Shown: piece by piece, positions 12,607 to 64,000 of the stretch
How the letters are laid out: each line of letters opens with the position of its first letter
Numbering within the stretch: the stretch's first letter is position 1
Assembly (NCBI GenBank): GCA_964518565.1
Contig: CAZFGX010000001.1
Location: 360,409-424,408 of the forward strand
Direction of reading: 5' to 3'
DNA length: 64,000 nucleotides
From: an uncultured Gammaproteobacteria bacterium
GTDB lineage: Bacteria > Patescibacteriota > Microgenomatia > CAZETR01 > Amesbacteraceae
Position numbers and translations under genes: made by a program
Notes under the pieces: generated by a model
What the model saw: only the letters and a program-made list of their open reading frames with translations
Told to the model about the DNA's origin: nothing
The model's database searches: none

Positions 12607-12678
12607 GTGAGGCGACTGGGACTCGAACCCAGAACCCACAGCTTAAAAGGCTGGTGCTCTACCATTGAGCTATCGCCC
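12607..12678 (-). tRNA. tRNA-Lys (anticodon TTT)
   Basis: reverse complement GGGGCGATAGCTCAATGGTAGAGCACCAGCCTTTTAAGCTGTGGGTTCTGGGTTCGAGTCCCAGTCGCCTCA folds as a cloverleaf; anticodon loop CTTTTAA; T-arm GGTTCGAGTCC; no encoded CCA. Confidence 0.85.
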
Positions 12679-12732
12679 CAGAAGGGGTAATCTGGTCAAT
12701 TATAGCCTCTCTTTCGCTTTCCTGCACCTGAG

Positions 12733-13304: not shown

Positions 13305-13376
13305 GGCCTCATCGTCTAGCGGCTAGGACACCGGGCTTTCATCCCGGTAACCGGGGTTCGATTCCCCGTGAGGTCA
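13305..13376 (+). tRNA. tRNA-Glu (anticodon TTC)
   Basis: GGCCTCATCGTCTAGCGGCTAGGACACCGGGCTTTCATCCCGGTAACCGGGGTTCGATTCCCCGTGAGGTCA folds as a cloverleaf; anticodon loop CTTTCAT. Confidence 0.85.
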
Positions 13377-13481
13377 CAAATTATATCCTATAATATTTAC
13401 TTCTTGGGCAATTTTTGCTATACTTCAGCCTCACTCTCGCGCATTGAAAAATTGTGAACTGAAACTTTTGTAGGAGGCTGT

Positions 13482-48329: not shown

Positions 48330-48584
48330 TCAACTACCCAGATGCTCAAATTCTCGTTTAGTTACATAACTAGTATCCAACACTTCTACTACTCGATCAA
48401 TAATTGACTCGGACATATCTTTTAAATCTTCTTTTGTAGCAAATTGCTCTAGATCTTTTTTAGTGGCAAACCGTTCCAAGTCCTCCTTTGTAGCAAAAGT
48501 GTCAAATCGTTTTTCTAGACTCAGTCGAAAATCTGCCAATGCTTCTAGTAATTGTTCTTGAGTCAACGGAGCCTGTGGAACCAT
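48330..48584 (-). CDS. hypothetical protein (84 aa) with three tandem 9-aa repeats (FATKEDLER/FATKKDLEQ/FATKEDLKD)
   Basis: ORF immediately upstream of lexA on same strand; 27-nt DNA repeats each containing TTTGNNNCAAA; coding status uncertain. Confidence 0.4.
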   Translation of the reverse strand: MVPQAPLTQEQLLEALADFRLSLEKRFDTFATKEDLERFATKKDLEQFATKEDLKDMSESIIDRVVEVLDTSYVTKREFEHLGS

Positions 48585-50651: not shown

Positions 50652-50668
50652 TTTGTTAGACTAGATAC

Positions 50669-51169
50669 ATGCCTGAGTCAACTACGGGTTTAGATTATTT
50701 GACGAAAGAAAAACGTCGCAAATTTCCACTTCGAAAAGATCATGTAGATAAAAAACGCTCAGGCGAAAATAAAAAACATTTTTTGAAACGTGAAGAAAAA
50801 GCTGAAACAGCATATCAGCGTCATAAATTACCCCGTTTCGATGAAGAAATAGGTGAACCAGAATTAATCGAATCCCCATCACCTTTCCCTTCAGCTGAAA
50901 CAGAGCCTGAAATGCTCAAAGCAGAGCTAATGTACGAATTAAGTAATGAAGTCTGGAATTTAGTAAATGAAACTGATAAATCCGAAGAGAACAAGTCTCG
51001 TTACACAATAGAACAAATATTTTCGACTGCCGAGGTAATAGCTGTGTACGCAAAAAAGTATCCTGACCTAGACCTATCTCGTCCAATGCGACGGTTAATG
51101 GAAAATACGCAAGTGATGTTTAGTGAGTCTTTTAGTCCGATTGTTGAAGATGAGGATGTGATGCAATAA
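50669..51169 (+). CDS. hypothetical protein (166 aa; basic N-terminus, acidic C-terminus)
   Basis: ORF between uvrB and giant ORF; no domain recognised. Confidence 0.5.
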   Translation: MPESTTGLDYLTKEKRRKFPLRKDHVDKKRSGENKKHFLKREEKAETAYQRHKLPRFDEEIGEPELIESPSPFPSAETEPEMLKAELMYELSNEVWNLVNETDKSEENKSRYTIEQIFSTAEVIAVYAKKYPDLDLSRPMRRLMENTQVMFSESFSPIVEDEDVMQ

Positions 51170-51202: not shown

Positions 51203-54200
51203 ATGTATCAGATTTGTAAAACAGCCAACGTCTTTCCTACTCGATTAGTCGACCGTTCGCCAACGCTTGGAATTCCAGAGAGTGACCTACTCAATAGTCG
51301 AGACGCGCTGCTAAATTTAGTAGCAGAAGCGGGTAAGTTTAGTAACGAAAAACAAGCAGACGATTGGATAGAATCTACAGCTTCGCGTATTTCTGAATTC
51401 ACCATGAGTCGTGCTCAGATCCAAGCAGAGGCTATTAAATCCAGCCTGAGTCCAGTAGTTATTAAAGATACAGTCCGTAGCATGCTTACTTCAGAACATA
51501 ATGTGGATTTCGATCAGTATTCATTGCAAACAATCGCTGCATTAGCCGAAGCTACAAATATGCCTGGTCCTTTTATGGAAAATGACCAAATTCGTGAACA
51601 TGTTATAAAACAAATTAGCTATACATATACACGCGTAGACGATGGTGTCTATTGGCAGGCCAGACGAAGTGAATGGATTAGTGCATACAAAAAATTATTT
51701 GGCGAAGATCTCGAAGCTGCTGTCAGTACAGAAGATTTGGCAAGAGTCGCAAGTCAATATTTCGATTGGTTGCGTGACGGCAATCAACTAACAAAAGATC
51801 AGATTCATATCTTAACTCGCGATAAAGACAAATTTTACCCCGGAGGTGATGTAATGAATCGTTTTATTACTCAAGAAGTATATAAATATTTAAATCAGGT
51901 AGACAAAGACACGCAAAACTTTGGCAGAATTGAACTATCATATAGAAATTTTATAAACCATCTTCGAACATTTTCCCAAGACTATTTAGACAATGACCCG
52001 ATATTGGCGAGTCCTGAGAATCCACAACTACTTGGAAATATAGAATATTTTTTATCCAGCAAAGATTTTTTACACCAACAAGATAGATTGGTTGATTTCT
52101 TACATGCTGTTGATGAGTCACTGGGCTGTCCCGTCTCACAAGAAATAAATTTAGGAATAGCATTTTTACACAGCAATATTGAATCTTTAGTAGACAATAT
52201 GCCGGAAAGTTATAAATCATACAAATCCTTAGCTGAAAAAATATCCTGCAATTTTTCATTTACACCCGAGCAAGCCAGTCAGCTAATAGCCAAATTGATC
52301 AATAAATACCAATTTTCCAACTACACCACTCCGAGAGCCCTCTCTGAAGATATAAAAAAAATGTATCAGTTGTTGGGTCAGGCGCCAGATCGAGAACGGG
52401 ATGTCATGCTTCTGACAAGAAAAGCCTACGATTCTGCCTGGGGTTCAGAAACCAAACTTGAAGAAATGCGCGATGAGTTTAGCCTGAATTATGATCCAGA
52501 TAGGCTGCAAGCAATTCAAAAAAACTGGACCAACAGATTTTTAGAGCGACCAACAGACAATGGTATGTCATTGATTGCAGCTGCAAAATATGCCGCGTTT
52601 CGACCGACAGGTGAACAAGGTGTAAGTCAAAAAGCGGTCGAATCTAGATGCTGGAGTCTACTTCGATCCAAAAACGGTATCCACCAAATTGAACTACTTC
52701 GTGAAGCAACAGGTATAACTCCCACATTCGATGATCAAAATCGTCTCAATCAAGCATATGCTGGCGCGCTTTTTGATAAAGATTTTAGTTTGTACAAATC
52801 AATTCAATCGCTGACCGGCATTCAGCCAGATTTTTCCGACCGGCAAGTAAACTCTGCTGTAAAAGGCTATATCAAATATTGCATATCAAGTAGAGGACAT
52901 GGTTTTAAGGAAACAGTTACTGAACTTAGTGAACAACTTGGAGTACCCCTAAATTATAACGAAGACGAACTTAAAGAAATTTTACGTTCGTCTTTAGGTG
53001 TGCCTCAAGAATCCAGTCCAGTCGTGAAAGAATTCTTGACTCGAATAACTGGCAAAACTGAACTGCCATTTGAAATGGTAAATGGGTCAGTTCAGTCCCT
53101 ATACCACAGGATTATTAATCGTGCTGGAAATATGGATATCATGGTTTCAAACCTACAAGAATTTACCGGTATCAAACCAGAATGGAATCAAAAAGAAGTT
53201 TTAGATTCAATGGCAGCGTTTATAAGCACTCCTTTCGTTTGCGTCAAAATAGCCGAGACAACCGGCATTAAACTTTCCATGGCTGATGAAAGTTTTATTC
53301 ATCATGTCAAAGATCAGTATATAAAATTTTTAATCCGCAAAAATACTTCTGCTGCCGAAGCATTGATTGTGGCTTTTGGTAAAGAAATAACAGTTTCTCC
53401 AGCTGATGCTGTTCAAATATTAAAAGATAATTATATATCTGCAAAAACAGATCTGACAGGCATGCTGGATCTGGTCGAACAAGCCAAAGAGGGTGGGGTA
53501 TTTTCCCTAGATGCTCAAAGGATTGACCAACTGGTTCAAGAGTGGGCCAATGTCGTATCTACGTCAGACACCACTAGTCGAGTAGGAGAACTACGTCTGG
53601 CCTGTGAAAAATTTGGCTTCTCTTATTCAAAATTATCCTCTCCAGCGCAACAAAAATTTGCCGCGTGGTTTTTGGATCCTCAGGTGGCCAACGAAGCTAG
53701 ATATTTTGCCACATCGCCAAAAACAGAAATTCAAGAGCCATTTAAACGTGAATTGGAACAAGTTCTAAAAAAGACCCTTATATCAAATTCACCAGAGCAT
53801 ATGTGCACACTGCTCGATAACGTCAAAGACAACTATCCGTCTTTGGCTGAACAAGTTCGTTCGCGAATATATATCCAATGTAGAGACAATTTGAGCCGTA
53901 TTATCGTTTTATCTGGTTTAGATGATTGGGTTCCTTTGTTGGAGACAATGGCCCCATCACCTCAAGAACGACAAAGTTTTTACGCCCAAATCATGGAAAA
54001 TCGTGTACCTAATCCAAATGAAATGGAACAATTTATTAAATATTCGTTACTCGCTGGCAAGCAAGTAGATTTAGAACAATACACCACACCATTAATCAAT
54101 AGTTTTATGTTAAACCCTCTCTCTGCTACCAGCTTCTTTTCGGTACTCGACGGTTTGTCTGAAAAAAACCCAGCCATAAAATTTTCATATTCCCAATTAA

Positions 54201-57200
54201 AAAAACATCCCTGGATCGACTCCTTTAACAAGCTTGTCCTACTCCAACGTCGTACTACTAACACAGAGCATGATCCCTGGGTGAAAGAGCTTCCTGGTTT
54301 GCTAAGCACCATCAAGTCAAATCATCAATTAGATTTTGATAGTTCAGCACAGGCTCGAGCCTTCAATCGATATTTTGAAAATTTTGGCATGTTAAACTTA
54401 CCCACTATTTTTGGCATGTATTTCGAATTAGGGACGACAGATATCAAAAACATAGATCCAAATATGCAAAAAACTCTAGCGGAAATTGGCATTGCCACTA
54501 CATTTTCAGGTGGAAAACCACGCGAAATGCAAGATATATTTGTAGATTTTGAAGCCTTTTGTCACCAGTTTCGCATTTCGCTCACCCACGATAGGCTGCC
54601 TCCTGGCATCCAGACAGCGGTAGGTCGTGAATATTACGAATATTTACGTGGCGCCTCTAGCCATTCAAGCAGTACTTATTCTACCGAACAGGTCTTGCGC
54701 CAAGTAGAAAATATGTACACCAGCCAACCAGAAAAGTACAAAGTCCCCGAATATTTACAACCTGCCACATTCACCGTCGAGTCAAAAAAAAGAAACAATT
54801 CTTCAGCCATAACCAAAGAAAAAGCCGTCGCCACCAAAAAAATTCTTGAAAGCAGTCAGTCGACCGAAGTGTTTAGAGCTCCCTATGCGGCCATGTCAGA
54901 AGCGTTTTCTACTCCTCGTACATTGTCAGAAATGCGTGATCAAGTCGTAAACACCCTTGAAGCAAAACAAACAAAAATGCTCCAAACACTAGGCTGGTCT
55001 GTAGAAAATCTAGATGTTTTATTGGCCAATTCCGAATCATCAGATAGAAAAACAGCCGGTCTAGTCGAAAATCTCAAAGGCGTCAGAACTGCTATGACAG
55101 ATATTAGACAGACCGCCAACATAGCTGTTGAACCGGGTACAGAAGCTGAAACCGGATATGTGGAACAGGTCGCTTTTTTGACAGCGTTGGCAAAAAATAT
55201 TTCTCAAGTCAAAATCGAATCACTGCGCACCGCCTCTTTGCAATTTTTTGCCTCGTTGCAGTCTCCTGAGATGAAAACTCAAATGTTGGGTATTAAAAAT
55301 TTGATCGATATAGCTGATCCAACAGGTGCGTACTACTATGCAGATGCACTAAAAAACAACGTGTTAGAACATTTCTTATTTAACACTGGCACACCTGAAG
55401 AAATACGTGCCCATTCGGGCCACCAACCATTTGATCCTGAAACTCATCATGCTATTGCCAAAGCTTTAGGGGTAAATGTTATGCAACAAGACAAACGATC
55501 AACCATCCCTATCGACGCACTACTTGACCGGCTAAAGCAGTTAGATGAAGAAACCGAAGAAGCCAGTAAAATAAAAGAAAATATATCAATGATTCCTGTG
55601 GGGGGTATTGGCCTTGTTATGGCTCCGTATTCCGGTGATATGTGCGCTTCGAAACTTGATATGGATATTGCTCGAACAACTAAATACCCTGGGCTAAATG
55701 CATATATGTATGTCACAAATGAAGGCAAGTCAAATGAAAAAATTGTCGGTAGTATGTTTGTCATGTCCACGAAAAGTGAAGATGGAGCACCGACACTTTT
55801 ATTCCGGGCAAATAATCCCCGCCAAAATTACATCAAAGATATGAATGCGGAGCAGTTTGTAAAAGCCTCCGTCGGCCATATTGTAGACGATGCTCGACGT
55901 CTCTGGGCCACTCAAGAGCCCAGAACAAAAGTCAGAGTTGTCACCCCAATTGATGGAGCTAGTCAAAGTGCCACAAATCGGCCAGATATTTTTGCCGCTA
56001 CCTTGAGTCTGTTGGGTCAACCAAAACCCATTCCGCTCGAATATTCAGAGACGACATATTTTAACCAGTATGCAAGTTACGACTCCACCCTAACTCAGCC
56101 AGGTTATAATCGTGCCAGCCGACTAGTATTTGAAATAGACAACGATGGCACAGAAACCTGGCATGCCAAACAAGATTACATGGGCATAAATAAGCAATCC
56201 GAGCATTTTCCTGCCCCTGCCTTATCTATCAAACAATTGGATTCCAACTCTGGTCGAGAAATAGAAGGTATCGCTTCAGCGGAGCTCAACTTCCGCCGTT
56301 TGCGTAGTGATAGAGACTATTCAGTATTGTCTCAAAATTCTCGTATCACCGGTTCGGAAAATTTTTCAAAATATGTCTATTTCATTGATACGGTTGGAGA
56401 AGAAGATATCCAGACATTGCAAGTCGAAGCCCCACATTGGCGATCCGTCACCTCCAAAGAACCAGAAGTAAAATTTGAATACAACTTCACGACACCAGAT
56501 GGAAATGTAATTAGCGAACCATATTTTGTAGCAAATACAAAAGGCTGTGGGTACACCAAACCCACTGCCAAAGGTCAAAATTTCGCCAACTATTCCAGTT
56601 GGACATTAGATCCAAAAAATTCCGAATCCAAAGTCTATGGATGTATTTCCGAATGGGAAGGGGAAGATACTAGTTTTTATGTCGAAAAATCAAACGAACT
56701 GACTGCAGCCGGCTTACGCTGTGAAATGAATTGGGCTACGACAAAAGTTGAAGCTTTGCCGTTTCGGGGTAAGATGCGTTCCGTAGCATGGTTAAAACAA
56801 CATGGAGTATTGCCTAATGATCCAGATTATTTCCCAGTCATAAATGTCCGTCTTCTAAAAACTAATACCCGAATAGAAGAAGCTCTTGAGGCTTCTGGGC
56901 GTCGAAAAGAAATTTTTAACGAAGCGTTTGAAACCTTTAACAAAGAACAAGCCTACAAAGGCCAGTCAGTATTTCCAGTCGAATCGCAAATTACCAAAGA
57001 TGCTTATTTTAAATTTTTCTTTGAATCGATGGCCAAAAATATGGCCGTCTTATTAAACGGGGATTATATCTATGCCGGAGATTCATCGTCACTTCACTCT
57101 TCAAATGTCAGCATGGCTGCTGAAGTAATGGATATCGATACGGTACACATAAATTCAGAAAACGCCCAAGACAATCCGGAACAATTAGTTCAAACGTTTG

Positions 57201-57493
57201 GCGTCGCATTGGGACATTTAAAAGATATGGGCAATGTTGCCACTGGATTACGTGATCTACTCAATGCTGCCGACGCAGCCAAGATCAAGTATCAAGGCGC
57301 CGAAGATTTGGTCGATATGTTTATGGCAAAGTTGGATCAAGAGTTGTCAGAAGAAAAACTTAACGTATTCGATCACAAAAAAGAGGACGTGACAAAATGG
57401 ATGGAGTGGCTACTTAGAAAGGTCGTCATCAATGGTGATGGACTTCCGTCTCTAAAGCGGGTAGATATATCAGAGTGGGGCAGAACCCGATGA
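51203..57493 (+). CDS. giant hypothetical protein (2096 aa), no signal peptide or TM segments, internal roughly 40-aa repeats
   Basis: single uninterrupted ORF of 6.3 kb; composition similar to neighbouring genes; repeated xxTGIxP modules at aa 496-710. Confidence 0.7.
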   Translation: MYQICKTANVFPTRLVDRSPTLGIPESDLLNSRDALLNLVAEAGKFSNEKQADDWIESTASRISEFTMSRAQIQAEAIKSSLSPVVIKDTVRSMLTSEHNVDFDQYSLQTIAALAEATNMPGPFMENDQIREHVIKQISYTYTRVDDGVYWQARRSEWISAYKKLFGEDLEAAVSTEDLARVASQYFDWLRDGNQLTKDQIHILTRDKDKFYPGGDVMNRFITQEVYKYLNQVDKDTQNFGRIELSYRNFINHLRTFSQDYLDNDPILASPENPQLLGNIEYFLSSKDFLHQQDRLVDFLHAVDESLGCPVSQEINLGIAFLHSNIESLVDNMPESYKSYKSLAEKISCNFSFTPEQASQLIAKLINKYQFSNYTTPRALSEDIKKMYQLLGQAPDRERDVMLLTRKAYDSAWGSETKLEEMRDEFSLNYDPDRLQAIQKNWTNRFLERPTDNGMSLIAAAKYAAFRPTGEQGVSQKAVESRCWSLLRSKNGIHQIELLREATGITPTFDDQNRLNQAYAGALFDKDFSLYKSIQSLTGIQPDFSDRQVNSAVKGYIKYCISSRGHGFKETVTELSEQLGVPLNYNEDELKEILRSSLGVPQESSPVVKEFLTRITGKTELPFEMVNGSVQSLYHRIINRAGNMDIMVSNLQEFTGIKPEWNQKEVLDSMAAFISTPFVCVKIAETTGIKLSMADESFIHHVKDQYIKFLIRKNTSAAEALIVAFGKEITVSPADAVQILKDNYISAKTDLTGMLDLVEQAKEGGVFSLDAQRIDQLVQEWANVVSTSDTTSRVGELRLACEKFGFSYSKLSSPAQQKFAAWFLDPQVANEARYFATSPKTEIQEPFKRELEQVLKKTLISNSPEHMCTLLDNVKDNYPSLAEQVRSRIYIQCRDNLSRIIVLSGLDDWVPLLETMAPSPQERQSFYAQIMENRVPNPNEMEQFIKYSLLAGKQVDLEQYTTPLINSFMLNPLSATSFFSVLDGLSEKNPAIKFSYSQLKKHPWIDSFNKLVLLQRRTTNTEHDPWVKELPGLLSTIKSNHQLDFDSSAQARAFNRYFENFGMLNLPTIFGMYFELGTTDIKNIDPNMQKTLAEIGIATTFSGGKPREMQDIFVDFEAFCHQFRISLTHDRLPPGIQTAVGREYYEYLRGASSHSSSTYSTEQVLRQVENMYTSQPEKYKVPEYLQPATFTVESKKRNNSSAITKEKAVATKKILESSQSTEVFRAPYAAMSEAFSTPRTLSEMRDQVVNTLEAKQTKMLQTLGWSVENLDVLLANSESSDRKTAGLVENLKGVRTAMTDIRQTANIAVEPGTEAETGYVEQVAFLTALAKNISQVKIESLRTASLQFFASLQSPEMKTQMLGIKNLIDIADPTGAYYYADALKNNVLEHFLFNTGTPEEIRAHSGHQPFDPETHHAIAKALGVNVMQQDKRSTIPIDALLDRLKQLDEETEEASKIKENISMIPVGGIGLVMAPYSGDMCASKLDMDIARTTKYPGLNAYMYVTNEGKSNEKIVGSMFVMSTKSEDGAPTLLFRANNPRQNYIKDMNAEQFVKASVGHIVDDARRLWATQEPRTKVRVVTPIDGASQSATNRPDIFAATLSLLGQPKPIPLEYSETTYFNQYASYDSTLTQPGYNRASRLVFEIDNDGTETWHAKQDYMGINKQSEHFPAPALSIKQLDSNSGREIEGIASAELNFRRLRSDRDYSVLSQNSRITGSENFSKYVYFIDTVGEEDIQTLQVEAPHWRSVTSKEPEVKFEYNFTTPDGNVISEPYFVANTKGCGYTKPTAKGQNFANYSSWTLDPKNSESKVYGCISEWEGEDTSFYVEKSNELTAAGLRCEMNWATTKVEALPFRGKMRSVAWLKQHGVLPNDPDYFPVINVRLLKTNTRIEEALEASGRRKEIFNEAFETFNKEQAYKGQSVFPVESQITKDAYFKFFFESMAKNMAVLLNGDYIYAGDSSSLHSSNVSMAAEVMDIDTVHINSENAQDNPEQLVQTFGVALGHLKDMGNVATGLRDLLNAADAAKIKYQGAEDLVDMFMAKLDQELSEEKLNVFDHKKEDVTKWMEWLLRKVVINGDGLPSLKRVDISEWGRTR

Positions 57494-57506: not shown

Positions 57507-57830
57507 ATGTCCAAAGAATGTCCAGTCATTTCCCAGCTGCGTGAATCATTAGAGATGGATTTGCAGGTTGCCATACCCCATGTTGTAAATACACGAGAGC
57601 CGTATGTGAGTATTACGCCTCTATTGCCACTAGAGTGCCAATCTTGCAGATTCAAAGCCACAGCTGAGACCCAATTTACTGTTGGACTTCGAGGTGGAGA
57701 TATAGGTGGAGCATTCAGACAATCTGCTGGGCAATCCTGTGACCAAATCCAAAAAAATCCTGCTAACTCAAAAGATATAACTCCCACCTTGGCAAATATC
57801 GTCCGGACGATCATGACTTCGGCTAAATAA
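57507..57830 (+). CDS. small hypothetical Cys-containing protein (107 aa)
   Basis: ORF starting 14 nt after giant ORF stop; competing antisense ORF would run through a terminator hairpin. Confidence 0.35.
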   Translation: MSKECPVISQLRESLEMDLQVAIPHVVNTREPYVSITPLLPLECQSCRFKATAETQFTVGLRGGDIGGAFRQSAGQSCDQIQKNPANSKDITPTLANIVRTIMTSAK

Positions 57831-57840
57831 TAAAAATTGC

Positions 57841-57878
57841 AAAAAAAAGGCCGGACAATGCTTTCGCACTCTCCGGCC
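57841..57878 (-). terminator. rho-independent terminator (GGCCGGA/TCCGGCC stem + U8 on minus strand)
   Basis: plus-strand A8 57841-57848 then hairpin 57849-57878; downstream of minus-strand TRAM gene. Confidence 0.6.
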
Positions 57879-57910
57879 ACAGAACAATTAATTACACATT
57901 GTCGAATAAG

Positions 57911-58801
57911 CTACAGACCCAAAAGAGTCTTTCCACCTACGCTGACCCACTCGTTGCGCTGTTTGGCTACCTTTGCCTCAAATGCCGAAGGGGCACCTGA
58001 CTGCAACAAGCGTGATTGTTTGGGAGGAGGAGTTCGGAGCAATTCCAGTCGGCGCATTTCAGCGATTTGCGCCTCGGTGTGCTCCATTGAGCCAAACAAG
58101 CGGCTCATCTTTTTGGAGTAAACCACTAGTTTTCGATTCCGACCTTTCAGAGCGCGACGTGCACGCTTCCGATCGACTACTTCTGCGAGTCGAGCCAAAA
58201 TCTGCTCATCCGTCATCCGGCTGATCACCTTTGGCTGCGGGAGAACAACTGGCGTGATTCTGACCGGCATGTATGCCGGGTTCACGTTCAACTGTTTTGC
58301 CTCTTTCTCGATCTTTTTGTCGATCTTTGGCGGCTGATTAAAAAATCTTGCCCTCAGCACAATGCCGTGGTGGTCGTCAGGACATTCTCCGGCAAATACA
58401 AACTTATCGATTTTGCCGGGCTTGGCACTTGAGGGTACATAGACCCTCCGTCCATCCACCTCTACAAAACGTAGATCGCCATCAGCACAAACCAGCCACA
58501 TGTAGGTCTGTCCCACAACCAAGCTTGAGACTTTTGTATCATCAAGTCTTGCAACGAGACAATTTTTCCCCACATGAACGATTTTGACCTTGTGGGTACC
58601 AAGAGGTACCCCATGACCAAAAACTATCACTTTTCCGAGCCTGCCAACGGGATCAACTCCTCGCTGATTTGGCTCAAACGTAATCGTGTGCACATCTCCG
58701 ACCTTTGTTGGAGGGTTTTGGAGTTGTGCACGTGGGGTCTGCTGAACATTTTGAGAGTTGAAATTTGAACGAGTTGCAACTGGCATAACTAACGTAGTCA
58801 T
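57911..58801 (-). CDS. TRAM-domain protein with basic C-terminal region
   Basis: segment KVGDVHTITFEPNQRGVDPVGRLGKVIVFGHGVPLGTHKVKIVHVGKNCLVARL matches TRAM beta-barrel pattern; start at MTTLV with GGAAGG RBS; GC about 50%. Confidence 0.5.
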   Translation of the reverse strand: MTTLVMPVATRSNFNSQNVQQTPRAQLQNPPTKVGDVHTITFEPNQRGVDPVGRLGKVIVFGHGVPLGTHKVKIVHVGKNCLVARLDDTKVSSLVVGQTYMWLVCADGDLRFVEVDGRRVYVPSSAKPGKIDKFVFAGECPDDHHGIVLRARFFNQPPKIDKKIEKEAKQLNVNPAYMPVRITPVVLPQPKVISRMTDEQILARLAEVVDRKRARRALKGRNRKLVVYSKKMSRLFGSMEHTEAQIAEMRRLELLRTPPPKQSRLLQSGAPSAFEAKVAKQRNEWVSVGGKTLLGL

Positions 58802-59051
58802 ATTTACCTTCCATTTGTTCAACCTAATTTCTGCCGATATCCATAGTCGCAACTATGTCATCTCAGTCACAGAATCCCCATTCGGTCAGGTGGGAACCAA
58901 AAAAGCCCAAAATTTAGGCACTTTTGCTTCCCACCTGGAATATGTAATTATTGTCTGTTAAAGAGCTAAATATAGCCTCAAATTAGCCATGTTTCGCATT
59001 GAATCTAGGCCAACAGATCTATATCCTATAGTATAGCACATTTTTGCCTGC

Positions 59052-59080
59052 TTGGCAACTTGTCAGCCTGGGTGTATATA
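59052..59080 (+). promoter_or_regulatory. sigma70-like promoter TTGGCA-17-TATATA
   Basis: ATG at 59089 only about 8 nt downstream, suggesting a leaderless/short-leader mRNA; ATCCTATAGTAT motif 20 nt upstream. Confidence 0.45.
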
Positions 59081-59088
59081 TAGGACAA

Positions 59089-59406
59089 ATGGTAGAGTGC
59101 CCTGTGGCCAAATACCTGAAACCAGACATGAAATACGCTCTAGAGATAGGCGTAGGGACAGCCTACCAAACCGGCCGAAACGTCCACTATACTTCCGATC
59201 CCATTCGTACTGAATGCACAGCCTGTCCTTTCTCAGATACTGTAGTGATCTCTGTAGAATGTACTACTGGTGTAGAAATCGCTGCCTCAGTCAGATCCGA
59301 AAAATCAACTGATATTTGTGAAACAGGTAACCAAGCACTGGGTATGGTAATCCAAAAATTTATTCACGATGAATTTGTAGCTCCACAAAACGCTCATAAC
59401 AACTAA
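59089..59406 (+). CDS. small Cys-rich hypothetical protein (105 aa)
   Basis: in-frame ATG downstream of promoter; ORF track extends to a TTG at 59044. Confidence 0.4.
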   Translation: MVECPVAKYLKPDMKYALEIGVGTAYQTGRNVHYTSDPIRTECTACPFSDTVVISVECTTGVEIAASVRSEKSTDICETGNQALGMVIQKFIHDEFVAPQNAHNN

Positions 59407-59412
59407 ATTCCA

Positions 59413-59450
59413 CAAAAAAAGCGCCTGTGGATCTTTAGGATCCGCAAGCG
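59413..59450 (-). terminator. rho-independent terminator (about 12-bp stem, U7 on minus strand)
   Basis: GCGCCTGTGGATC...GATCCGCAAGCGC hairpin with plus-strand A7 upstream; between convergent genes. Confidence 0.6.
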
Positions 59451-59459
59451 CAAACGAAA

Positions 59460-59756
59460 CTATTGAAAAGCCTTGTGCTGTACAAAGCCTTCACCAGGAT
59501 GCCAGCCAGCTGTCAAACAGCTTTGAAAGGCATGCACCCTTTTTTCAAAATTAGGGATAGAAGGGAATTGTAGGCAGTCAGGATGAAAGACAACCTGATC
59601 TGCTGCGGGTAAAATAGCTACTACTTGAGGGTCTGCATGTTCATCGCGAAAAAAGTTTTCATGCACCCAAAAACCCTTGACCCAAAAGTACCAAATATTA
59701 CCTACTCGAATAGCGGAACCTTCCTCGGGTAAAACAGTTGCAAAACGCATAGTCAT
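59460..59756 (-). CDS. hypothetical protein (98 aa)
   Basis: ORF followed by terminator. Confidence 0.45.
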   Translation of the reverse strand: MTMRFATVLPEEGSAIRVGNIWYFWVKGFWVHENFFRDEHADPQVVAILPAADQVVFHPDCLQFPSIPNFEKRVHAFQSCLTAGWHPGEGFVQHKAFQ

Positions 59757-59761
59757 CCTCC

Positions 59762-60202
59762 TTAACCTTGAAATGTATCAAAAATTGGCACACTGTGTTT
59801 AATGTCCAATAATTCTTTAGGCCTGAATTTAGCAACTATCGCACGAAGTCGAGTTGACATAATTTCCACAAAAACAGGGATATTGTTTGTCATCCACAGT
59901 AAGTTCACCGTCTGTGTAAACAAATATGTTCCATACCCCTTACCACGAAACTCAGGCTTAATATAAATTGCCGAAATTGAAGTGAGTGGCAACTCTGACA
60001 CCAAGGTTTGCTCAACCTTTCCTAGTAAGCACACGCCAATCAACACATTATCTAGATATAGACCAGTACCTGAATCAAGACTTTGAATCAAAATATCCTG
60101 ACTAAATAGCAGTCTTTTCACATGACTATCGGGGAGTTTTGCAATCCACATCAAGAGTTGTTCTTTAGATACTGGATACACGATATATGTGCTCATATCC
60201 AT
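59762..60202 (-). CDS. GNAT-family N-acetyltransferase
   Basis: motif A IYIKPEFRGKGYGTYLF. Confidence 0.7.
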   Translation of the reverse strand: MDMSTYIVYPVSKEQLLMWIAKLPDSHVKRLLFSQDILIQSLDSGTGLYLDNVLIGVCLLGKVEQTLVSELPLTSISAIYIKPEFRGKGYGTYLFTQTVNLLWMTNNIPVFVEIMSTRLRAIVAKFRPKELLDIKHSVPIFDTFQG

Positions 60203-60216
60203 CCTCCTTATCTTGT

Positions 60217-60684
60217 CTAAAAATCATTCAACAAATCGAAATTGATTGATGCTGGCTCAACGTGAACCAGATCGGTTGTAAAGAGAGCCAGAATTCTGGA
60301 AAGACTGCGAGAACCAGCGGTCACATGAATAGGCGTCAATTTCATAGAATCACAAATCTCTAGTGTCAGTTGTAATAAAAATGTTCCATAGCCTTTGCCA
60401 CGAAATTCTGGAATTACATAGATTGCCGAAATACGGGGTATTTCGCGTGCAATAATTGCCGTCACGCCTACGAGTCGATCATCTACATATAACCCCGTTG
60501 CGCCATCCATAATGCCCAATGTTTCAGGGGAAAATAGTTTCAGTGTCAAAGGTGTGCGACGCAGACCCTTTACCCAGCCGTGAAATTCCGAAGTGCTCAA
60601 ATAGGTTACTCGAGCAGACATAAAGCCTCCTAAATCCAAATTTGAAAGGTACTCTCGCACAATTAGCCTCATGCAAGAGCCCAT
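60217..60684 (-). CDS. GNAT-family N-acetyltransferase (paralog of 59762..60202)
   Basis: motif A IYVIPEFRGKGYGTFLL; shared LVGV...I block with neighbour. Confidence 0.7.
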   Translation of the reverse strand: MGSCMRLIVREYLSNLDLGGFMSARVTYLSTSEFHGWVKGLRRTPLTLKLFSPETLGIMDGATGLYVDDRLVGVTAIIAREIPRISAIYVIPEFRGKGYGTFLLQLTLEICDSMKLTPIHVTAGSRSLSRILALFTTDLVHVEPASINFDLLNDF

Positions 60685-60710
60685 AGTATACTCTCTTCTA
60701 ATCCAAAACT

Positions 60711-61424
60711 CTACTCTTCATCTGGGTCAAAACTCCGAATCGTAGTCTCAAAAGGACTTTCTTGAGCCATATTGGCATTATCTTTACTCAAAAGCATTTT
60801 TACCCTTTGGCCAAAATCTTCAAATTTTGCTTTTATCTGATTTGTTTTTTCACTCACAGCTTTCTTTCCAAAAAATAAAGCCAGCTTAGGTATAGCTTCC
60901 CAGCGATTTACCACCATAGTTTTTTCGACCACCTGATCTCTAAAAGGAACAGTCATATGAAATGGTAAGACTTTCCACCCAGGCATTTTTTCCACAGTAT
61001 CAACCAAATCTTTGGTAATAAACAAACTTACTGGAATAGGCGAGTCAACCAATTCTTTCATGAGTCGATATCCTCCTCTGAGAGTTTTTGGGGCAAAGTG
61101 GGTCGGGACAAATACGCCATCCACCGAACTGCCTAGTAAATATCCATCCTTATCTGCTCCGTATGCCAATGATTCATTATAATTTCCGTGATTAAAAAAA
61201 TGATTCTCAAAACTGTTTTGATTCAACGGCTCTCGGCCTCTTCGTTCAATCGCCGCTGCATAGTATTCATAAATCTCTTCCATTAATAAATATTGTTCAC
61301 GATTTGTTAGACCATGTAAAAGTTCTGTTGTCGTAGTCAAACGATTTTTACTCAATTGCTTTTCTGCTGCCAGATCATGTTCTGAAAAACTATTACCTTC
61401 AGCCATACTTTTTAAGTATAGCAA
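60711..61424 (-). CDS. hypothetical protein (237 aa), possibly GNAT-fold
   Basis: RGGYRLMKEL resembles the GNAT motif A R/QxxGxG/A element; otherwise unrecognised. Confidence 0.45.
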   Translation of the reverse strand: MLYLKSMAEGNSFSEHDLAAEKQLSKNRLTTTTELLHGLTNREQYLLMEEIYEYYAAAIERRGREPLNQNSFENHFFNHGNYNESLAYGADKDGYLLGSSVDGVFVPTHFAPKTLRGGYRLMKELVDSPIPVSLFITKDLVDTVEKMPGWKVLPFHMTVPFRDQVVEKTMVVNRWEAIPKLALFFGKKAVSEKTNQIKAKFEDFGQRVKMLLSKDNANMAQESPFETTIRSFDPDEE

Positions 61425-61429
61425 AGCAC

Positions 61430-61456
61430 AAAAAAAGCGCCGGGGTCACCGGCGCT
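61430..61456 (-). terminator. rho-independent terminator (GCGCCGG/CCGGCGC stem + U7 on minus strand)
   Basis: perfect 7-bp GC stem, 5-nt loop, plus-strand A7 at 61430-61436. Confidence 0.65.
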
Positions 61457-61515
61457 AAAAGATAAATCAATTTAGTCAAAAACATTTCGCATTGAAATTA
61501 TTTCAACTAAATAGA

Positions 61516-61950
61516 TCATTGCCCAAACAATGGGCGGACATACTGGACAAAAATCCACCCCGACAGATACGCAATGCTCACGATTGCTTGAAAAATCGTC
61601 AACAGTTTTAGCCACATTGGTGGCACGACATTATCTGTCAACATTTTTTCCGCATACTCCAGATACCACAACAGATTGGCGACATGTGTCGAAGCAAATA
61701 TTGCCACATACACTTTCAGCCAGACCGGAGCAGGGACAAAAACAATCACCCCAGCGCGAATAATCGCTGAAGCCAGAGACTTAAACAGATGCCCCACCTC
61801 TTTTGGACCACCTGTAGCGATAATCTTGCCCTTGTAGCCATGTTTGGCTACCCAGTCTTCAAAATATCGTCCCTTGTGACCAATTTGTTCAGCCAAATAC
61901 ACGGCCTGATTCAAAATCACCAAAACAGCCAATACCAGTAACATATCCAT
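61516..61950 (-). CDS. hypothetical membrane protein (144 aa)
   Basis: 3-4 hydrophobic helices. Confidence 0.5.
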   Translation of the reverse strand: MDMLLVLAVLVILNQAVYLAEQIGHKGRYFEDWVAKHGYKGKIIATGGPKEVGHLFKSLASAIIRAGVIVFVPAPVWLKVYVAIFASTHVANLLWYLEYAEKMLTDNVVPPMWLKLLTIFQAIVSIAYLSGWIFVQYVRPLFGQ

Positions 61951-61968
61951 GCCTCCTAAATAGAAGAT

Positions 61969-62247
61969 CTAATATCGTACGACTCGTCGCCGCAAACCTG
62001 GCCGTACCGGCGAGATTAGTGTATCAGTCAACATCGGATCTATCTCCACCTGCTTCACCTCAAAACCTTCCAAGGTGACTGTGGCATGTACAGTGTACGC
62101 AGATCGATTAAGATTTGAATATCCTGTGACATGATAGGTGGTTTGACTTGGCGAAAGTTTTCGCAAGAACAAAATATATTCTGGTATACCATGACCCAAA
62201 TCAATCATTTTTTGAATCACAGCTCGCATTGAATGAGAAATTTTCAT
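61969..62247 (-). CDS. hypothetical protein (about 92 aa)
   Basis: ORF; start moved to internal Met (MKISH) to give a 4-nt overlap with the upstream gene. Confidence 0.35.
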   Translation of the reverse strand: MKISHSMRAVIQKMIDLGHGIPEYILFLRKLSPSQTTYHVTGYSNLNRSAYTVHATVTLEGFEVKQVEIDPMLTDTLISPVRPGLRRRVVRY

Positions 62248-62621
62248 ACCGTCTCCCGTAAAAAATCCTGGATATCTGGCCAATGATGTGGCGGCTCATC
62301 ACCAACCACACCTAGCTGCTTCAACTCATCTGCCACATCGCTCATTGTGCCGTCTGCGTGATTCACGGCATTGTGCCGACAATATCGCCATAGGGCAACA
62401 GCACGCGAATCAGTGGGTGGAATTTCGCCATTGCGAATTTGATTTAACACCGCCTGATCCACATCCGACCATCCAGCGTAATCCAACGCAATCCAATCTC
62501 TATCGTGTCTTCGTATCTCATATTCCCTCCATTCGAATGAAAACATCACGAGATTCAGCAAGTACGGAATTGAACCGTCAGTATCTAACACTAGATACCT
62601 GCCACCAGGCCAGCTGCACAA
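62244..62621 (-). CDS. hypothetical protein (125 aa)
   Basis: ORF, GC about 53%; antisense ORF of equal length is low-complexity and rejected. Confidence 0.4.
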   Translation of the reverse strand: MCSWPGGRYLVLDTDGSIPYLLNLVMFSFEWREYEIRRHDRDWIALDYAGWSDVDQAVLNQIRNGEIPPTDSRAVALWRYCRHNAVNHADGTMSDVADELKQLGVVGDEPPHHWPDIQDFLRETV

Positions 62622-62788
62622 ACAACATACGTCTACGTATTATTTATCTGCAACTTATCGATTGATACTCTCAGATCACATTTGCACGCTTCCTTCTGAA
62701 ATTTTTTCAGCTAGTACGCTATGAATGTGTTCTTCAGCGAGTATAAACCGCATCGTATTTTACTCTAGGACAAATAATACATATTCGA

Positions 62789-63133
62789 TTAGGCGTTCAC
62801 AGTCCAGATTCCAAATGCAAATGTTGCATTCGCAATCTGTTCGTCATTGTACTGTGCGGTGCCTTCCAATCTAGGAAGACCTCGGACAGACAAGACGATT
62901 ATCGAGTCTCCGACCCGCAAAGACACTTTCGGTGCCCCAACGGTCGAAATCTCAATACTGTGTTTAGCTTGCAAAGCAGCCAAAGTATTTGCATGGCTTG
63001 CGTTACAACAGGAAACAGCAGTTTTACTCAATTGCCGCACCTCTTCGACCGAAAGTGGTCGCCGAGATATAGCCGCATTTAAGTCAAACATGCTATCACC
63101 AATCGCCAAACCGATATATGTTGTTCCAGACAT
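62789..63133 (-). CDS. hypothetical protein (114 aa)
   Basis: strong RBS AGGAGGGA; promoter TTGAAA-17-TATTTT with ATCCTATAGTAT motif on minus strand at 63224-63235. Confidence 0.45.
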   Translation of the reverse strand: MSGTTYIGLAIGDSMFDLNAAISRRPLSVEEVRQLSKTAVSCCNASHANTLAALQAKHSIEISTVGAPKVSLRVGDSIIVLSVRGLPRLEGTAQYNDEQIANATFAFGIWTVNA

Positions 63134-63353
63134 CCGTCCCTCCTAACTAAAAAAAGATTGTAAACGTTCGAGTGAGGCCAAAATCCTCCCTCTCAAAATA
63201 CCATATTTCACCAACTATTTCAATACTATAGGATAAAAATACAACCAAAAAAGCGCATGAAGCCGACTGCGATTTTATTCTCTCTTTTGGCCTGTCCTCC
63301 AAAAAAGTAAAATCACAGACAGCGTCATGCGCTCTTAAATAATTATCAATTTC

Positions 63354-63391
63354 AAAAAAAGTGGAGAGATGGGGCGTACCCATCTCTCCAC
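63354..63391 (-). terminator. rho-independent terminator (perfect 12-bp stem GTGGAGAGATGG/CCATCTCTCCAC + U7 on minus strand)
   Basis: hairpin 63361-63391 with plus-strand A7 63354-63360. Confidence 0.7.
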
Positions 63392-63491
63392 AAACTAACA
63401 AAACAGATTTTTCATAGAAATTTCACGCAAAAAGTGAACTCTATAAAAAGTCTGTCATTTACGCATCGAGCATTCAAAAGCAGAATTTTGA

Positions 63492-63908
63492 TTACTGGCG
63501 TTGTGATTTGCGTTGAGCCACCATTGGCTCAGACACCCACTCGACCCAAGCCTTGAGTAGACCTGAGCGTAATGCAGTCAACAAATCTAGACTACCACCG
63601 CCCACATATCCGACTGCTATCGAGCTTGAGTCAGGGTCGGCGCTACTCGGATTGTGGGAAACTGTATAGGTCGTCCCTTCAAAACCGAAGTAACGGGTTT
63701 GATCATCAAACTGGTAATTACGAGTTTGTGAAGCTATTGCACCCCACAACTCTCGAATTTCGGCTTGCTCTCGAGCGAATCGAGTGCGTATTTCTTCAAA
63801 TCTAGACTGGTTCATTTCGACTCTTTGAGTCGGAATGAACCTGACCATACCAAAAGCAGGATACGCAAAGTCTCCATAAATGCCTTCGATCGTCGAAGAA
63901 GTAATCAC
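63492..63908 (-). CDS. hypothetical protein (138 aa)
   Basis: GTG start overlapping (ATGTGA) the stop of an upstream partial ORF. Confidence 0.45.
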   Translation of the reverse strand: MITSSTIEGIYGDFAYPAFGMVRFIPTQRVEMNQSRFEEIRTRFAREQAEIRELWGAIASQTRNYQFDDQTRYFGFEGTTYTVSHNPSSADPDSSSIAVGYVGGGSLDLLTALRSGLLKAWVEWVSEPMVAQRKSQRQ

Positions 63909-64000
63909 ATTTCCGCGCTCTCTAGTATGTAACGAGTCCTCCCGTTCTCGTCTATCTTGTTGTGCTTGTTCCAGAGATTTGGCGTCAAACCCATAACCTC
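63905..64000 (-). CDS. 3' end of a hypothetical gene continuing beyond the window
   Basis: open frame to window edge, stop TGA at 63905-63907. Confidence 0.25.
   Translation of the reverse strand, partial: EVMGLTPNLWNKHNKIDENGRTRYILESAEM

Follow-up and report, generated by a model that had tools for sequence, protein, structure and literature searches.

The DNA analyzed here (the window) is a stretch of 64,000 nucleotides (nt) of contig CAZFGX010000001.1, which ends on its right-hand side in a block of small, mostly minus-strand genes that begins at position 57911. Judged by comparison with relatives, this block is the right-hand arm of a lineage-specific flexible island of ~14.6 kb (window positions 50652 to ~65270), which lies between uvrB and uvrA on a ~1-Mb chromosome. 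The initial annotation had proposed the block itself as an accessory island, an extent that proved too small: the arm with the giant gene belongs to the same island, which runs past the window end to uvrA. Gene calls beyond the window end were supplied by a public 67.6-kb contig identical to the window (L001). The gap between uvrB and uvrA contains w166, a giant open reading frame (ORF), and g107 on the plus strand, followed by an arm of twelve genes that are on the minus strand except b120. Its features, with free energies (dG) and z scores relative to shuffled sequences, are as follows.

50669-51169, plus strand: w166, starting 17 bp past the uvrB stop
51203-57493, plus strand: giant ORF, 2096 amino acids (aa), 34 bp after w166
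57507-57830, plus strand: g107, four-Cys protein of 107 aa, immediately following the giant gene
57849-57878, minus strand: terminator of b296 (dG -24.2 kcal/mol, z -5.3, U8 tail), identical in a related strain
57911-58801, minus strand: b296, 296 aa, the "TRAM" gene of the initial annotation
58885-58940, minus strand: leader hairpin of b296, ~22 bp and nearly perfect (z -3.35 for the whole leader fold)
59030-59058, minus strand: putative b296 promoter, sigma-70-like TTGCCA-N17-TATACT with extended TG, matching the consensus at 10 of 12 positions
59044-59406, plus strand: b120, the sole plus-strand ORF of the block, a four-Cys protein with its likely start at ATG 59089
59420-59451, minus strand: terminator after b96 (dG -20.1 kcal/mol, z -5.0, U7 tail)
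59460-59750, minus strand: b96, a 96-aa protein and the final gene of the GNAT operon
59762-60196, minus strand: b144, a short GNAT acetyltransferase
60217-60621, minus strand: b134, a short GNAT acetyltransferase
60711-61406, minus strand: b231, a third, cryptic GNAT-fold protein
61436-61456, minus strand: terminator after b142TM (dG -15.6 kcal/mol, z -4.4), also found by a consensus scan
61516-61944, minus strand: b142TM, a hydrophobic membrane protein
61969-62247, minus strand: b92, a gene call in an operon with b114, b100, and b142TM
62244-62546, minus strand: b100, a gene call in the same operon
62789-63133, minus strand: b114, a gene call in the same operon
63361-63391, minus strand: terminator after b329 (13-bp stem, dG -25.3 kcal/mol, z -7.7), also found by a consensus scan
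63492 to ~64481, minus strand: b329, 329 aa, with its last 138 codons within the window
to ~64943, past the window end, minus strand: b140, a 140-aa gene preceding b329 (L001 gene calls)

The co-directional layout first noted in the block was borne out, with ten minus-strand ORFs between 57911 and the window end and a single plus-strand ORF (b120) amid them. The ORF previously placed at 63492-63908 represents only the C-terminal 138 aa of b329, which runs off the window. Farther to the right, b140 and uvrA (~65271) are divergent and have a common promoter region. All four hairpins named initially as terminators are strong and carry a U7-8 tail (z -4.4 to -7.7). They divide the block into what are, as predicted from these signals, four minus-strand transcription units, each with its own terminator: (i) b140-b329; (ii) b114-b100-b92-b142TM; (iii) b231-b134-b144-b96; and (iv) b296 alone. 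The initial impression that the block has no recognizable housekeeping function was likewise upheld, since Pfam identified only two GNAT proteins, and NCBIfam, PADLOC, and PHROGs returned nothing meaningful. The proteins b114, b100, b92, and b142TM had no family matches in Pfam, PADLOC, or PHROGs, and b120 had none in these databases or in NCBIfam; Rfam revealed no family across the block or in the b296 leader.

The island is flanked on its left by housekeeping genes, i.e., those for a PPDK-like protein, enolase, iPGM, a VTT-domain protein, LexA, and UvrB, and on its right by those for UvrA, PIG-L, UvrC, a holin-like protein, and SecG. A search of 185,579 species genomes identified Microgenomates, Levybacteria, and Woesebacteria metagenome-assembled genomes (MAGs) as the sources of the closest UvrA relatives, with 57 to 73% identity. 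Judged by these relatives, the source organism is a member of the Patescibacteria (candidate phyla radiation, CPR; Microgenomates group) without a close sequenced relative. We examined 80 related uvrA loci (10 kb on either side of uvrA), of which 43 contain both uvrB and uvrA. In all 43 of these Patescibacteria loci, uvrB immediately precedes uvrA, with both genes on one strand, and the gap between the two genes has a median length of 196 bp, is shorter than 600 bp in 26 loci, and reaches a maximum of 3.4 kb. The gap measures 372 and 429 bp in the two nearest relatives and 14.6 kb here. None of the 15 island proteins had a tblastn match within 10 kb of uvrA in the 80 loci, and where some of the more distant relatives have ORFs in the gap, these show no relationship to the island proteins. 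In more distant relatives (WWE3- or Saccharibacteria-labeled MAGs), the gap holds a conserved gene of ~680-800 aa, with 49 to 72% mutual identity, and other relatives carry different small genes at this position (loci L022, L049, L050, L051, L063, and L069). The uvrB-uvrA junction is a recurrent insertion spot.

There was no integrase near the island borders, no direct repeat of at least 12 nt at them, and no tRNA gene closer than 37 kb; the window has just two tRNA genes, those for Lys-TTT (12607-12679, minus strand) and Glu-TTC (13305-13377, plus strand), and their distance from the island means that it is not tRNA-associated. A prophage or integrated mobile element was considered and rejected, given that PHROGs structural or integrase matches, an att repeat, and a border tRNA were all missing. 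Just downstream of uvrA (L001 3335-4706; approximately window 68428-69799), there are genes for a Gmad2-like 77-aa protein, a 73-aa protein, a 91-aa protein, and a PIG-L deacetylase. The three small proteins had no match in the 80 related loci, and PIG-L had matches in 2 of the 80, at other positions. As these downstream genes are largely missing in relatives, the uvr cluster is variable on both sides of uvrA. On the uvrB side, an 84-aa minus-strand ORF (48330-48584) is located upstream of lexA, and the TTG start of uvrB listed at 48552 is probably too far upstream, as tblastn matches in relatives start at residues 20 to 24.

The island also varies between close strains. Three short, low-coverage contigs of sample SRR8893623 (L089, L091, and L092; ~3.6 kb) represent a related strain of roughly 93 to 96% identity, with 85 to 97% nt identity to the window (mostly 90 to 97%) over alignable segments. 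In L091, the segment with b92, b142TM, and the terminator is 92.6% identical (94% at the aa level for b142TM), and 607 bp (window 60818-61424) are skipped, which removes codons 1 to 197 of b231; the last 34 codons of this gene and the start of b134 are 96.7% identical. Because this 3' remnant survives, L091 represents a deletion of b231 in the related strain. The gene order of L092 is b134 (81% aa identity), a 407-bp insert not found in the window, b144 (91% aa identity), and a diverged b96, which shows ~50% aa identity over its first 30 residues, with no nt alignment past window position 59775. The L092 insert (~430-705) encodes a 91-aa membrane protein with approximately three transmembrane segments, the C-terminal half of which resembles b142TM (25% identity; E = 6e-5). 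This resemblance, in a gene located between two GNAT genes, hints at a recurring pairing of membrane proteins with GNATs. In total, within these ~3.6 kb, one gene has been lost, another has been gained, and identity drops sharply at two places. Turnover of this kind is, as read from these contigs, the behavior of a flexible, dispensable island.

One of the two drops concerns b296. In L089, the b296 leader (58936-58804) is 94.7% identical to the window at the nt level, and the segment from 57900 to 57464, which includes the terminator, g107, and the end of the giant gene, is 92.9% identical. The b296 coding sequence (CDS) between them has no detectable nt similarity to the window allele (30 to 37% aa identity); the similarity ends ~15 nt ahead of the ATG and resumes ~12 nt past the stop. 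Thus, b296 behaves, in the two alleles compared, as a hypervariable allelic cassette, whose whole CDS is replaced between conserved flanks. As the promoter, leader, and terminator are in these flanks, homologous recombination there, importing a deeply divergent allele, would be the simplest explanation of the swap. A diversity-generating retroelement was rejected, because no segment of b296 is repeated within 50-64 kb and the divergence extends across the whole CDS. An integron cassette model was also discarded, with no attC-like sites, no integrase, and hairpins that are U-tailed terminators of differing sequence. The locus resembles integron and allelic cassette loci in its small co-directional ORFs and in the precise exchange of one CDS between conserved flanks; it differs from integron cassettes in lacking attC-like sites or an integrase and in retaining the promoter, leader, and terminator in the flanks.

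The leader hairpin of b296 is not a plain terminator, because no U-run follows it, and it could serve as a stabilizer, a processing site, or a protein-binding site. A CTATAGGATATA motif common to the promoter regions of b296 and b140/uvrA was rejected as a specific operator, having 7 matches versus 3.8 expected and overlapping -10 boxes. On either side of the swapped b296 cassette are the plus-strand genes g107 and b120, which are weak paralogs (BLASTP E = 1e-4), both of ~105 aa, with the motifs "ECPV" and "EC..C.F" in common. The g107 protein is 95% identical in the related strain, in which the intervening b296 is replaced. A scan of JGI metagenomes anchored on g107 for further alleles or strains yielded a single irrelevant partial match (L090).

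Base composition sets b296 apart from the remainder of the island. The window has a uniform GC content of about 42%. The GC content of the block is 43.3%, compared with 42.05% for the rest of the window, and 5.5% of windows of the same size equal or exceed the block in GC. The GC values of 50 to 53% reported initially hold for 57.9-58.8 kb (49.8%, with a peak of 53.7% per 300 bp) and not for 62.2-63.1 kb, where GC is 45.0% (11% of the 900-bp windows outside the block are as high), nor for the block as a whole. The b296 gene (49.9%) is the window maximum at both the 300- and 900-bp scales, and both of its alleles have this same GC content between flanks of 43 to 45%. Synonymous codon usage, tested with the amino-acid sequence held fixed against 21 control genes (z -4.3 to +2.7), gave a z score of -7.0 for b296, -3.3 for b100, -2.4 to +0.5 for the remaining block genes, and +0.7 for the giant gene; uvrB had the most atypical usage among the control genes (z -4.3). 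Elevated GC as a signature of acquisition consequently applies to b296 only, the remainder of the block being host-like, and the b296 cassette alone looks, from its composition, recently imported. The island, mostly native in composition, may be a long-time resident or may have come from donors of similar composition.

The host-like GC and codon usage of most genes also fits a different history, in which the block is an ancestral, lineage-specific core region with homologs in relatives that evolve too fast to be recognized or lie elsewhere in the genome. The nearest sampled genome, with a UvrA identity of 73%, and the lack of mobility genes are compatible with this history. Nevertheless, uvrB-uvrA adjacency is universal in the 43 loci, which span several CPR classes, so that insertion is the parsimonious explanation, and the deletion, insertion, and replacement seen within the species show that the genes are dispensable. 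We therefore give an ancestral core very little credence. Both marks of a flexible island were found, namely, a junction that is uninterrupted in relatives and a gene content and alleles that vary between close strains. The proposal that the block is accessory rather than core is thus sustained by the 14.6-kb gap at an otherwise uninterrupted junction, the absence of its proteins from the relatives' loci, and the strain-level turnover; in the comparison made, the block was neither conserved across relatives nor assignable to core functions.

The clearest indication of what the island does comes from its GNAT operon. The b144 protein matches Acetyltransf_1 (1.9e-6), and b134 matches Acetyltransf_1 (1.1e-6) and Acetyltransf_10 (1.4e-6) in Pfam; the Acetyltransf_1 scores of b134 and b144 (28.6 and 29.3 bits) exceed the curated cutoff of 20.7, which places both proteins in the GNAT family. 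They are 36% identical paralogs, and both contain the acetyl-coenzyme A (CoA)-binding motif A "PEFRGKGYGT." Their best, weak matches in NCBIfam are RimI and PaiA. The third protein of the operon, b231, has a GNAT fold, and it had no match in Pfam, NCBIfam, PADLOC, PHROGs, or PDB sequence profiles. Homolog searches were performed by a word-indexed search of 5.8e9 clusters and an exhaustive phmmer search of 1.84e9 representatives. The word-indexed search identified nine b231 homologs (38 to 47% identity), one of which is named by its source as Patescibacteria, the others being from metagenomic contigs; one homolog adjoins restriction-modification genes (L083). With respect to its putative acyl-CoA binding and transferase activity, only an invariant motif "L..GY" after beta4 and the invariant residues T102, H103, and D133 were seen in this family. 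The b231 protein differs from RimI-like GNATs in its motif-A region, "PKTLRGGY" in place of the canonical Q/RxxGxG/A, and in having extra N- and C-terminal helices.

Small GNATs (134 to 144 aa) in a variable island, next to a small and fast-diverging neighbor (b96), are also compatible with a GNAT-type toxin-antitoxin system of the TacT/AtaT/KacT kind, in which the antitoxin would be b96 or a different small ORF and the rest would be unrelated ORFans. However, Pfam detected no RHH/DUF1778 antitoxin in any block protein, the operon has not a pair but three tandem GNAT-fold genes, and the weak NCBIfam matches are to RimI and PaiA and not to toxin families, with nothing from PADLOC. A toxin-antitoxin system is for these reasons a very improbable account of the operon.

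The core of b231, "VF.PTHFAP..LRGGY," was also found at residues 1451 to 1532 of a viral protein (33% identity; E = 6.6e-10), which is encoded as follows.

L088 3651-11987 (IMG/VR contig UViG_3300020577_001081): 2778-aa phage ORF with InPase, weak LPD39, HExxH, and phrog_10089 matches

With these domains and its match to phrog_10089, "DarB-like antirestriction" (1e-82), this ORF is a DarB-like phage protein of the polyvalent class defined by Iyer et al. (2017; PMC5512222), and it contains an unannotated GNAT-like module homologous to b231. RimI-like GNATs occur both fused and solo in polyvalent-protein systems, and Verrucomicrobium has a giant gene with small module ORFs nearby (Iyer et al., 2017; PMC5512222). 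The phage polyvalent link is a lead toward a conflict or host-interaction role, not proof of it. No tblastn match to b231 was obtained in PLSDB plasmids. The b329 protein had two homologs in the 5.8e9 clusters (44 to 50% identity), both on tiny contigs, and its family had none in IMG/VR viral contigs.

The left arm of the island bears on the same question. A terminator would not fit into the 17 bp between the uvrB stop and w166, and the giant gene follows w166 after 34 bp. Co-transcription of the giant gene with uvrB, beside lexA, is therefore probable, and the gene could be regulated by DNA damage. Canonical LexA-box patterns were searched for and none was found. A giant ORF beside small ORFs, a b231 core inside a DarB-like protein, GNATs as typical polyvalent modules, the Verrucomicrobium layout, and a whole CDS exchanged between conserved flanks could all be accommodated by a chromosomal effector island of the type seen with polyvalent proteins or polymorphic toxins, in which the giant gene would be the main locus, the small ORFs would be solo modules or exchangeable cassettes, and an episymbiotic CPR cell would use them against its host or competitors. 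Yet the giant protein has no Pfam (E <= 0.01), PHROG, or PDB match, no tblastn match in GenBank phages or PLSDB plasmids, and no sequence similarity to any small ORF of the island. In addition, the analysis revealed no genes for secretion or delivery, no signal peptides, and no immunity-like pairs, and the small genes run toward the giant gene from the opposite strand instead of following it. We consider an effector island of this kind unlikely. A more specific version, in which an episymbiotic CPR bacterium holds an effector arsenal consisting of a possibly SOS-co-transcribed giant protein and exchangeable modules that modify host or competitor macromolecules (three GNAT-fold modifiers and the basic, beta-rich b296, maintained as deeply divergent alleles that recombine through their flanks), is likewise unlikely.

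The b296 protein had been described as a TRAM-domain beta-barrel with a basic extension of ~200 aa. The basic part of this description is retained: b296 is a basic protein (pI 10.3) with a basic helical C-terminal tail of ~140 aa after two beta-rich segments. The TRAM assignment gained no support from any test. Pfam PF01938 and PF18693 had no match at E <= 10, either to whole b296 or to its two excised beta segments, and the same library detected the TRAM domains of Escherichia coli RlmD (7e-16), MiaB (5e-21), and RimO (1e-21). An hhalign comparison with the TRAM domains of these three E. coli proteins gave probabilities below 1%, a weak test given the very thin profiles, and a PDB profile search yielded no match. 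A low-confidence, single-sequence AlphaFold2 model (predicted local distance difference test score, 37.7), whose strands are not trustworthy, is beta-rich at ~37-85 and ~92-153, with helices thereafter and five strands within residues 34 to 86. The two b296 alleles keep the beta segments and little of the tail. By eye, residues 34 to 86 (G..V....E...G.G..R..G..VF....PG..V.V.I) resemble TRAM proteins (PF01938; RlmD, MiaB, and archaeal stand-alone proteins), from which b296 differs in having no statistical profile support, in its two beta segments and basic tail, and in belonging to a two-member family. The b296 protein may be a small-barrel nucleic-acid binder. The word-indexed search retrieved only b296 itself, and the phmmer search retrieved one homolog (P0024; 37% identity over residues 18 to 223; E = 1e-14), which comes from the SRR8893623 contigs. 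There was no match to b296 in IMG/VR and none by tblastn in GenBank phages or PLSDB plasmids.

The suggestion that the block is RNA-targeting or defense related accordingly remains a guess. It would require a TRAM-like protein that binds RNA, with the GNATs as effectors of an anti-phage system; the variable-island setting with allele swapping, the basic and beta-rich character of b296, and the b231 homolog beside restriction-modification genes in L083 are in keeping with such a system. On the other side, PADLOC-DB v2, searched with ten block proteins, returned only Cas1fv on b231 (E = 0.0048; 14 bits), which is noise, PHROGs gave no phage signal, the borders carry no integrase, tRNA, or att site, and neither Pfam nor hhalign supports a TRAM domain. 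The homologs of b231, b329, and b296 occur in neighborhoods unrelated to the block and not together elsewhere, so the block is not a conserved multi-gene system, and its genes are spread over four transcription units. A defense or RNA-targeting system is thus an improbable reading of the locus.

We conclude that the locus is probably, if by no wide measure, a strain-variable flexible island at the uvrB-uvrA junction whose functions likely concern acyl transfer and conflict. Near-identical strains differ in its gene content and alleles through gene loss, gene gain, and exchange of a whole CDS between conserved flanks. Acyl transfer is the only biochemistry that could be assigned: because one operon carries three GNAT-fold proteins in tandem, the island is predicted most likely to modify proteins or small molecules in an acyl-CoA-dependent manner. 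Small membrane proteins and a basic, beta-rich protein that is rapidly exchanged are also encoded. A role in a niche or in conflict, rather than in housekeeping, is suggested by the turnover, by the swapped cassette with its atypical codon usage, and by the presence of the b231 core in a phage polyvalent protein; possible roles include modifying or neutralizing foreign proteins or toxic metabolites, or manipulating a partner cell.

Several observations weigh against this conclusion. The strain comparison involves two strains only and ~3.6 kb in three low-coverage contigs, and the core divergence of the second strain was not directly measured; a LexA variant (99.5% aa identity) and a giant-gene fragment (91% aa identity) come from an NCBI assembly and possibly from another strain. 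The relatives were checked within 10 kb of uvrA, and the closest UvrA is 73% identical, such that fast-evolving homologs elsewhere would be missed. No mobility gene, tRNA, or att repeat explains the insertion. The phage link consists of one IMG/VR contig with 33% identity over 84 residues, and tblastn of b231 against GenBank phages found nothing. Finally, neither a fold nor a family could be assigned to 9 of the 12 block proteins, and no substrate, target, or phenotype is inferable.

CPR bacteria (Patescibacteria) have tiny genomes and depend on other cells, and little is known about ORFans that mediate these interactions. The locus described here is a well-delimited flexible island in a CPR genome, at a junction (uvrB|uvrA) that is recognizable in any relative. 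It offers three entry points: the b231 family of GNAT-fold proteins, which had not been annotated before and has a member module in a phage DarB-like polyvalent protein; two short GNATs in tandem; and a gene whose CDS is swapped as a unit between strains that are otherwise ~93 to 95% identical. If the conflict or effector interpretation is true, acyl-transfer enzymes would be part of the CPR interaction toolkit; if it is false, the locus is one more strain-variable ORFan island.

Among known systems, phage and conjugative polyvalent proteins (DarB-like) share with this locus the b231 core, which lies within one of them, and there is a precedent for a giant gene with small module genes. The locus differs from polyvalent systems in that its giant protein has no MuF, ART, MPTase, InPase, or LPD-type domain by Pfam or PHROGs, in that it has no phage or conjugation context, and in that the link concerns one of twelve block proteins. 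Flexible islands and hypervariable regions are known from streamlined genomes, e.g., those of Prochlorococcus and SAR11. The island described here differs from these in belonging to a CPR genome, in splitting uvrB from uvrA, in containing a 2096-aa giant gene and three GNAT-fold genes, and in being documented by data from two strains. It resembles them in its fixed site between core genes, its ORFans, its strain-variable alleles, and the frequent absence of mobility genes.

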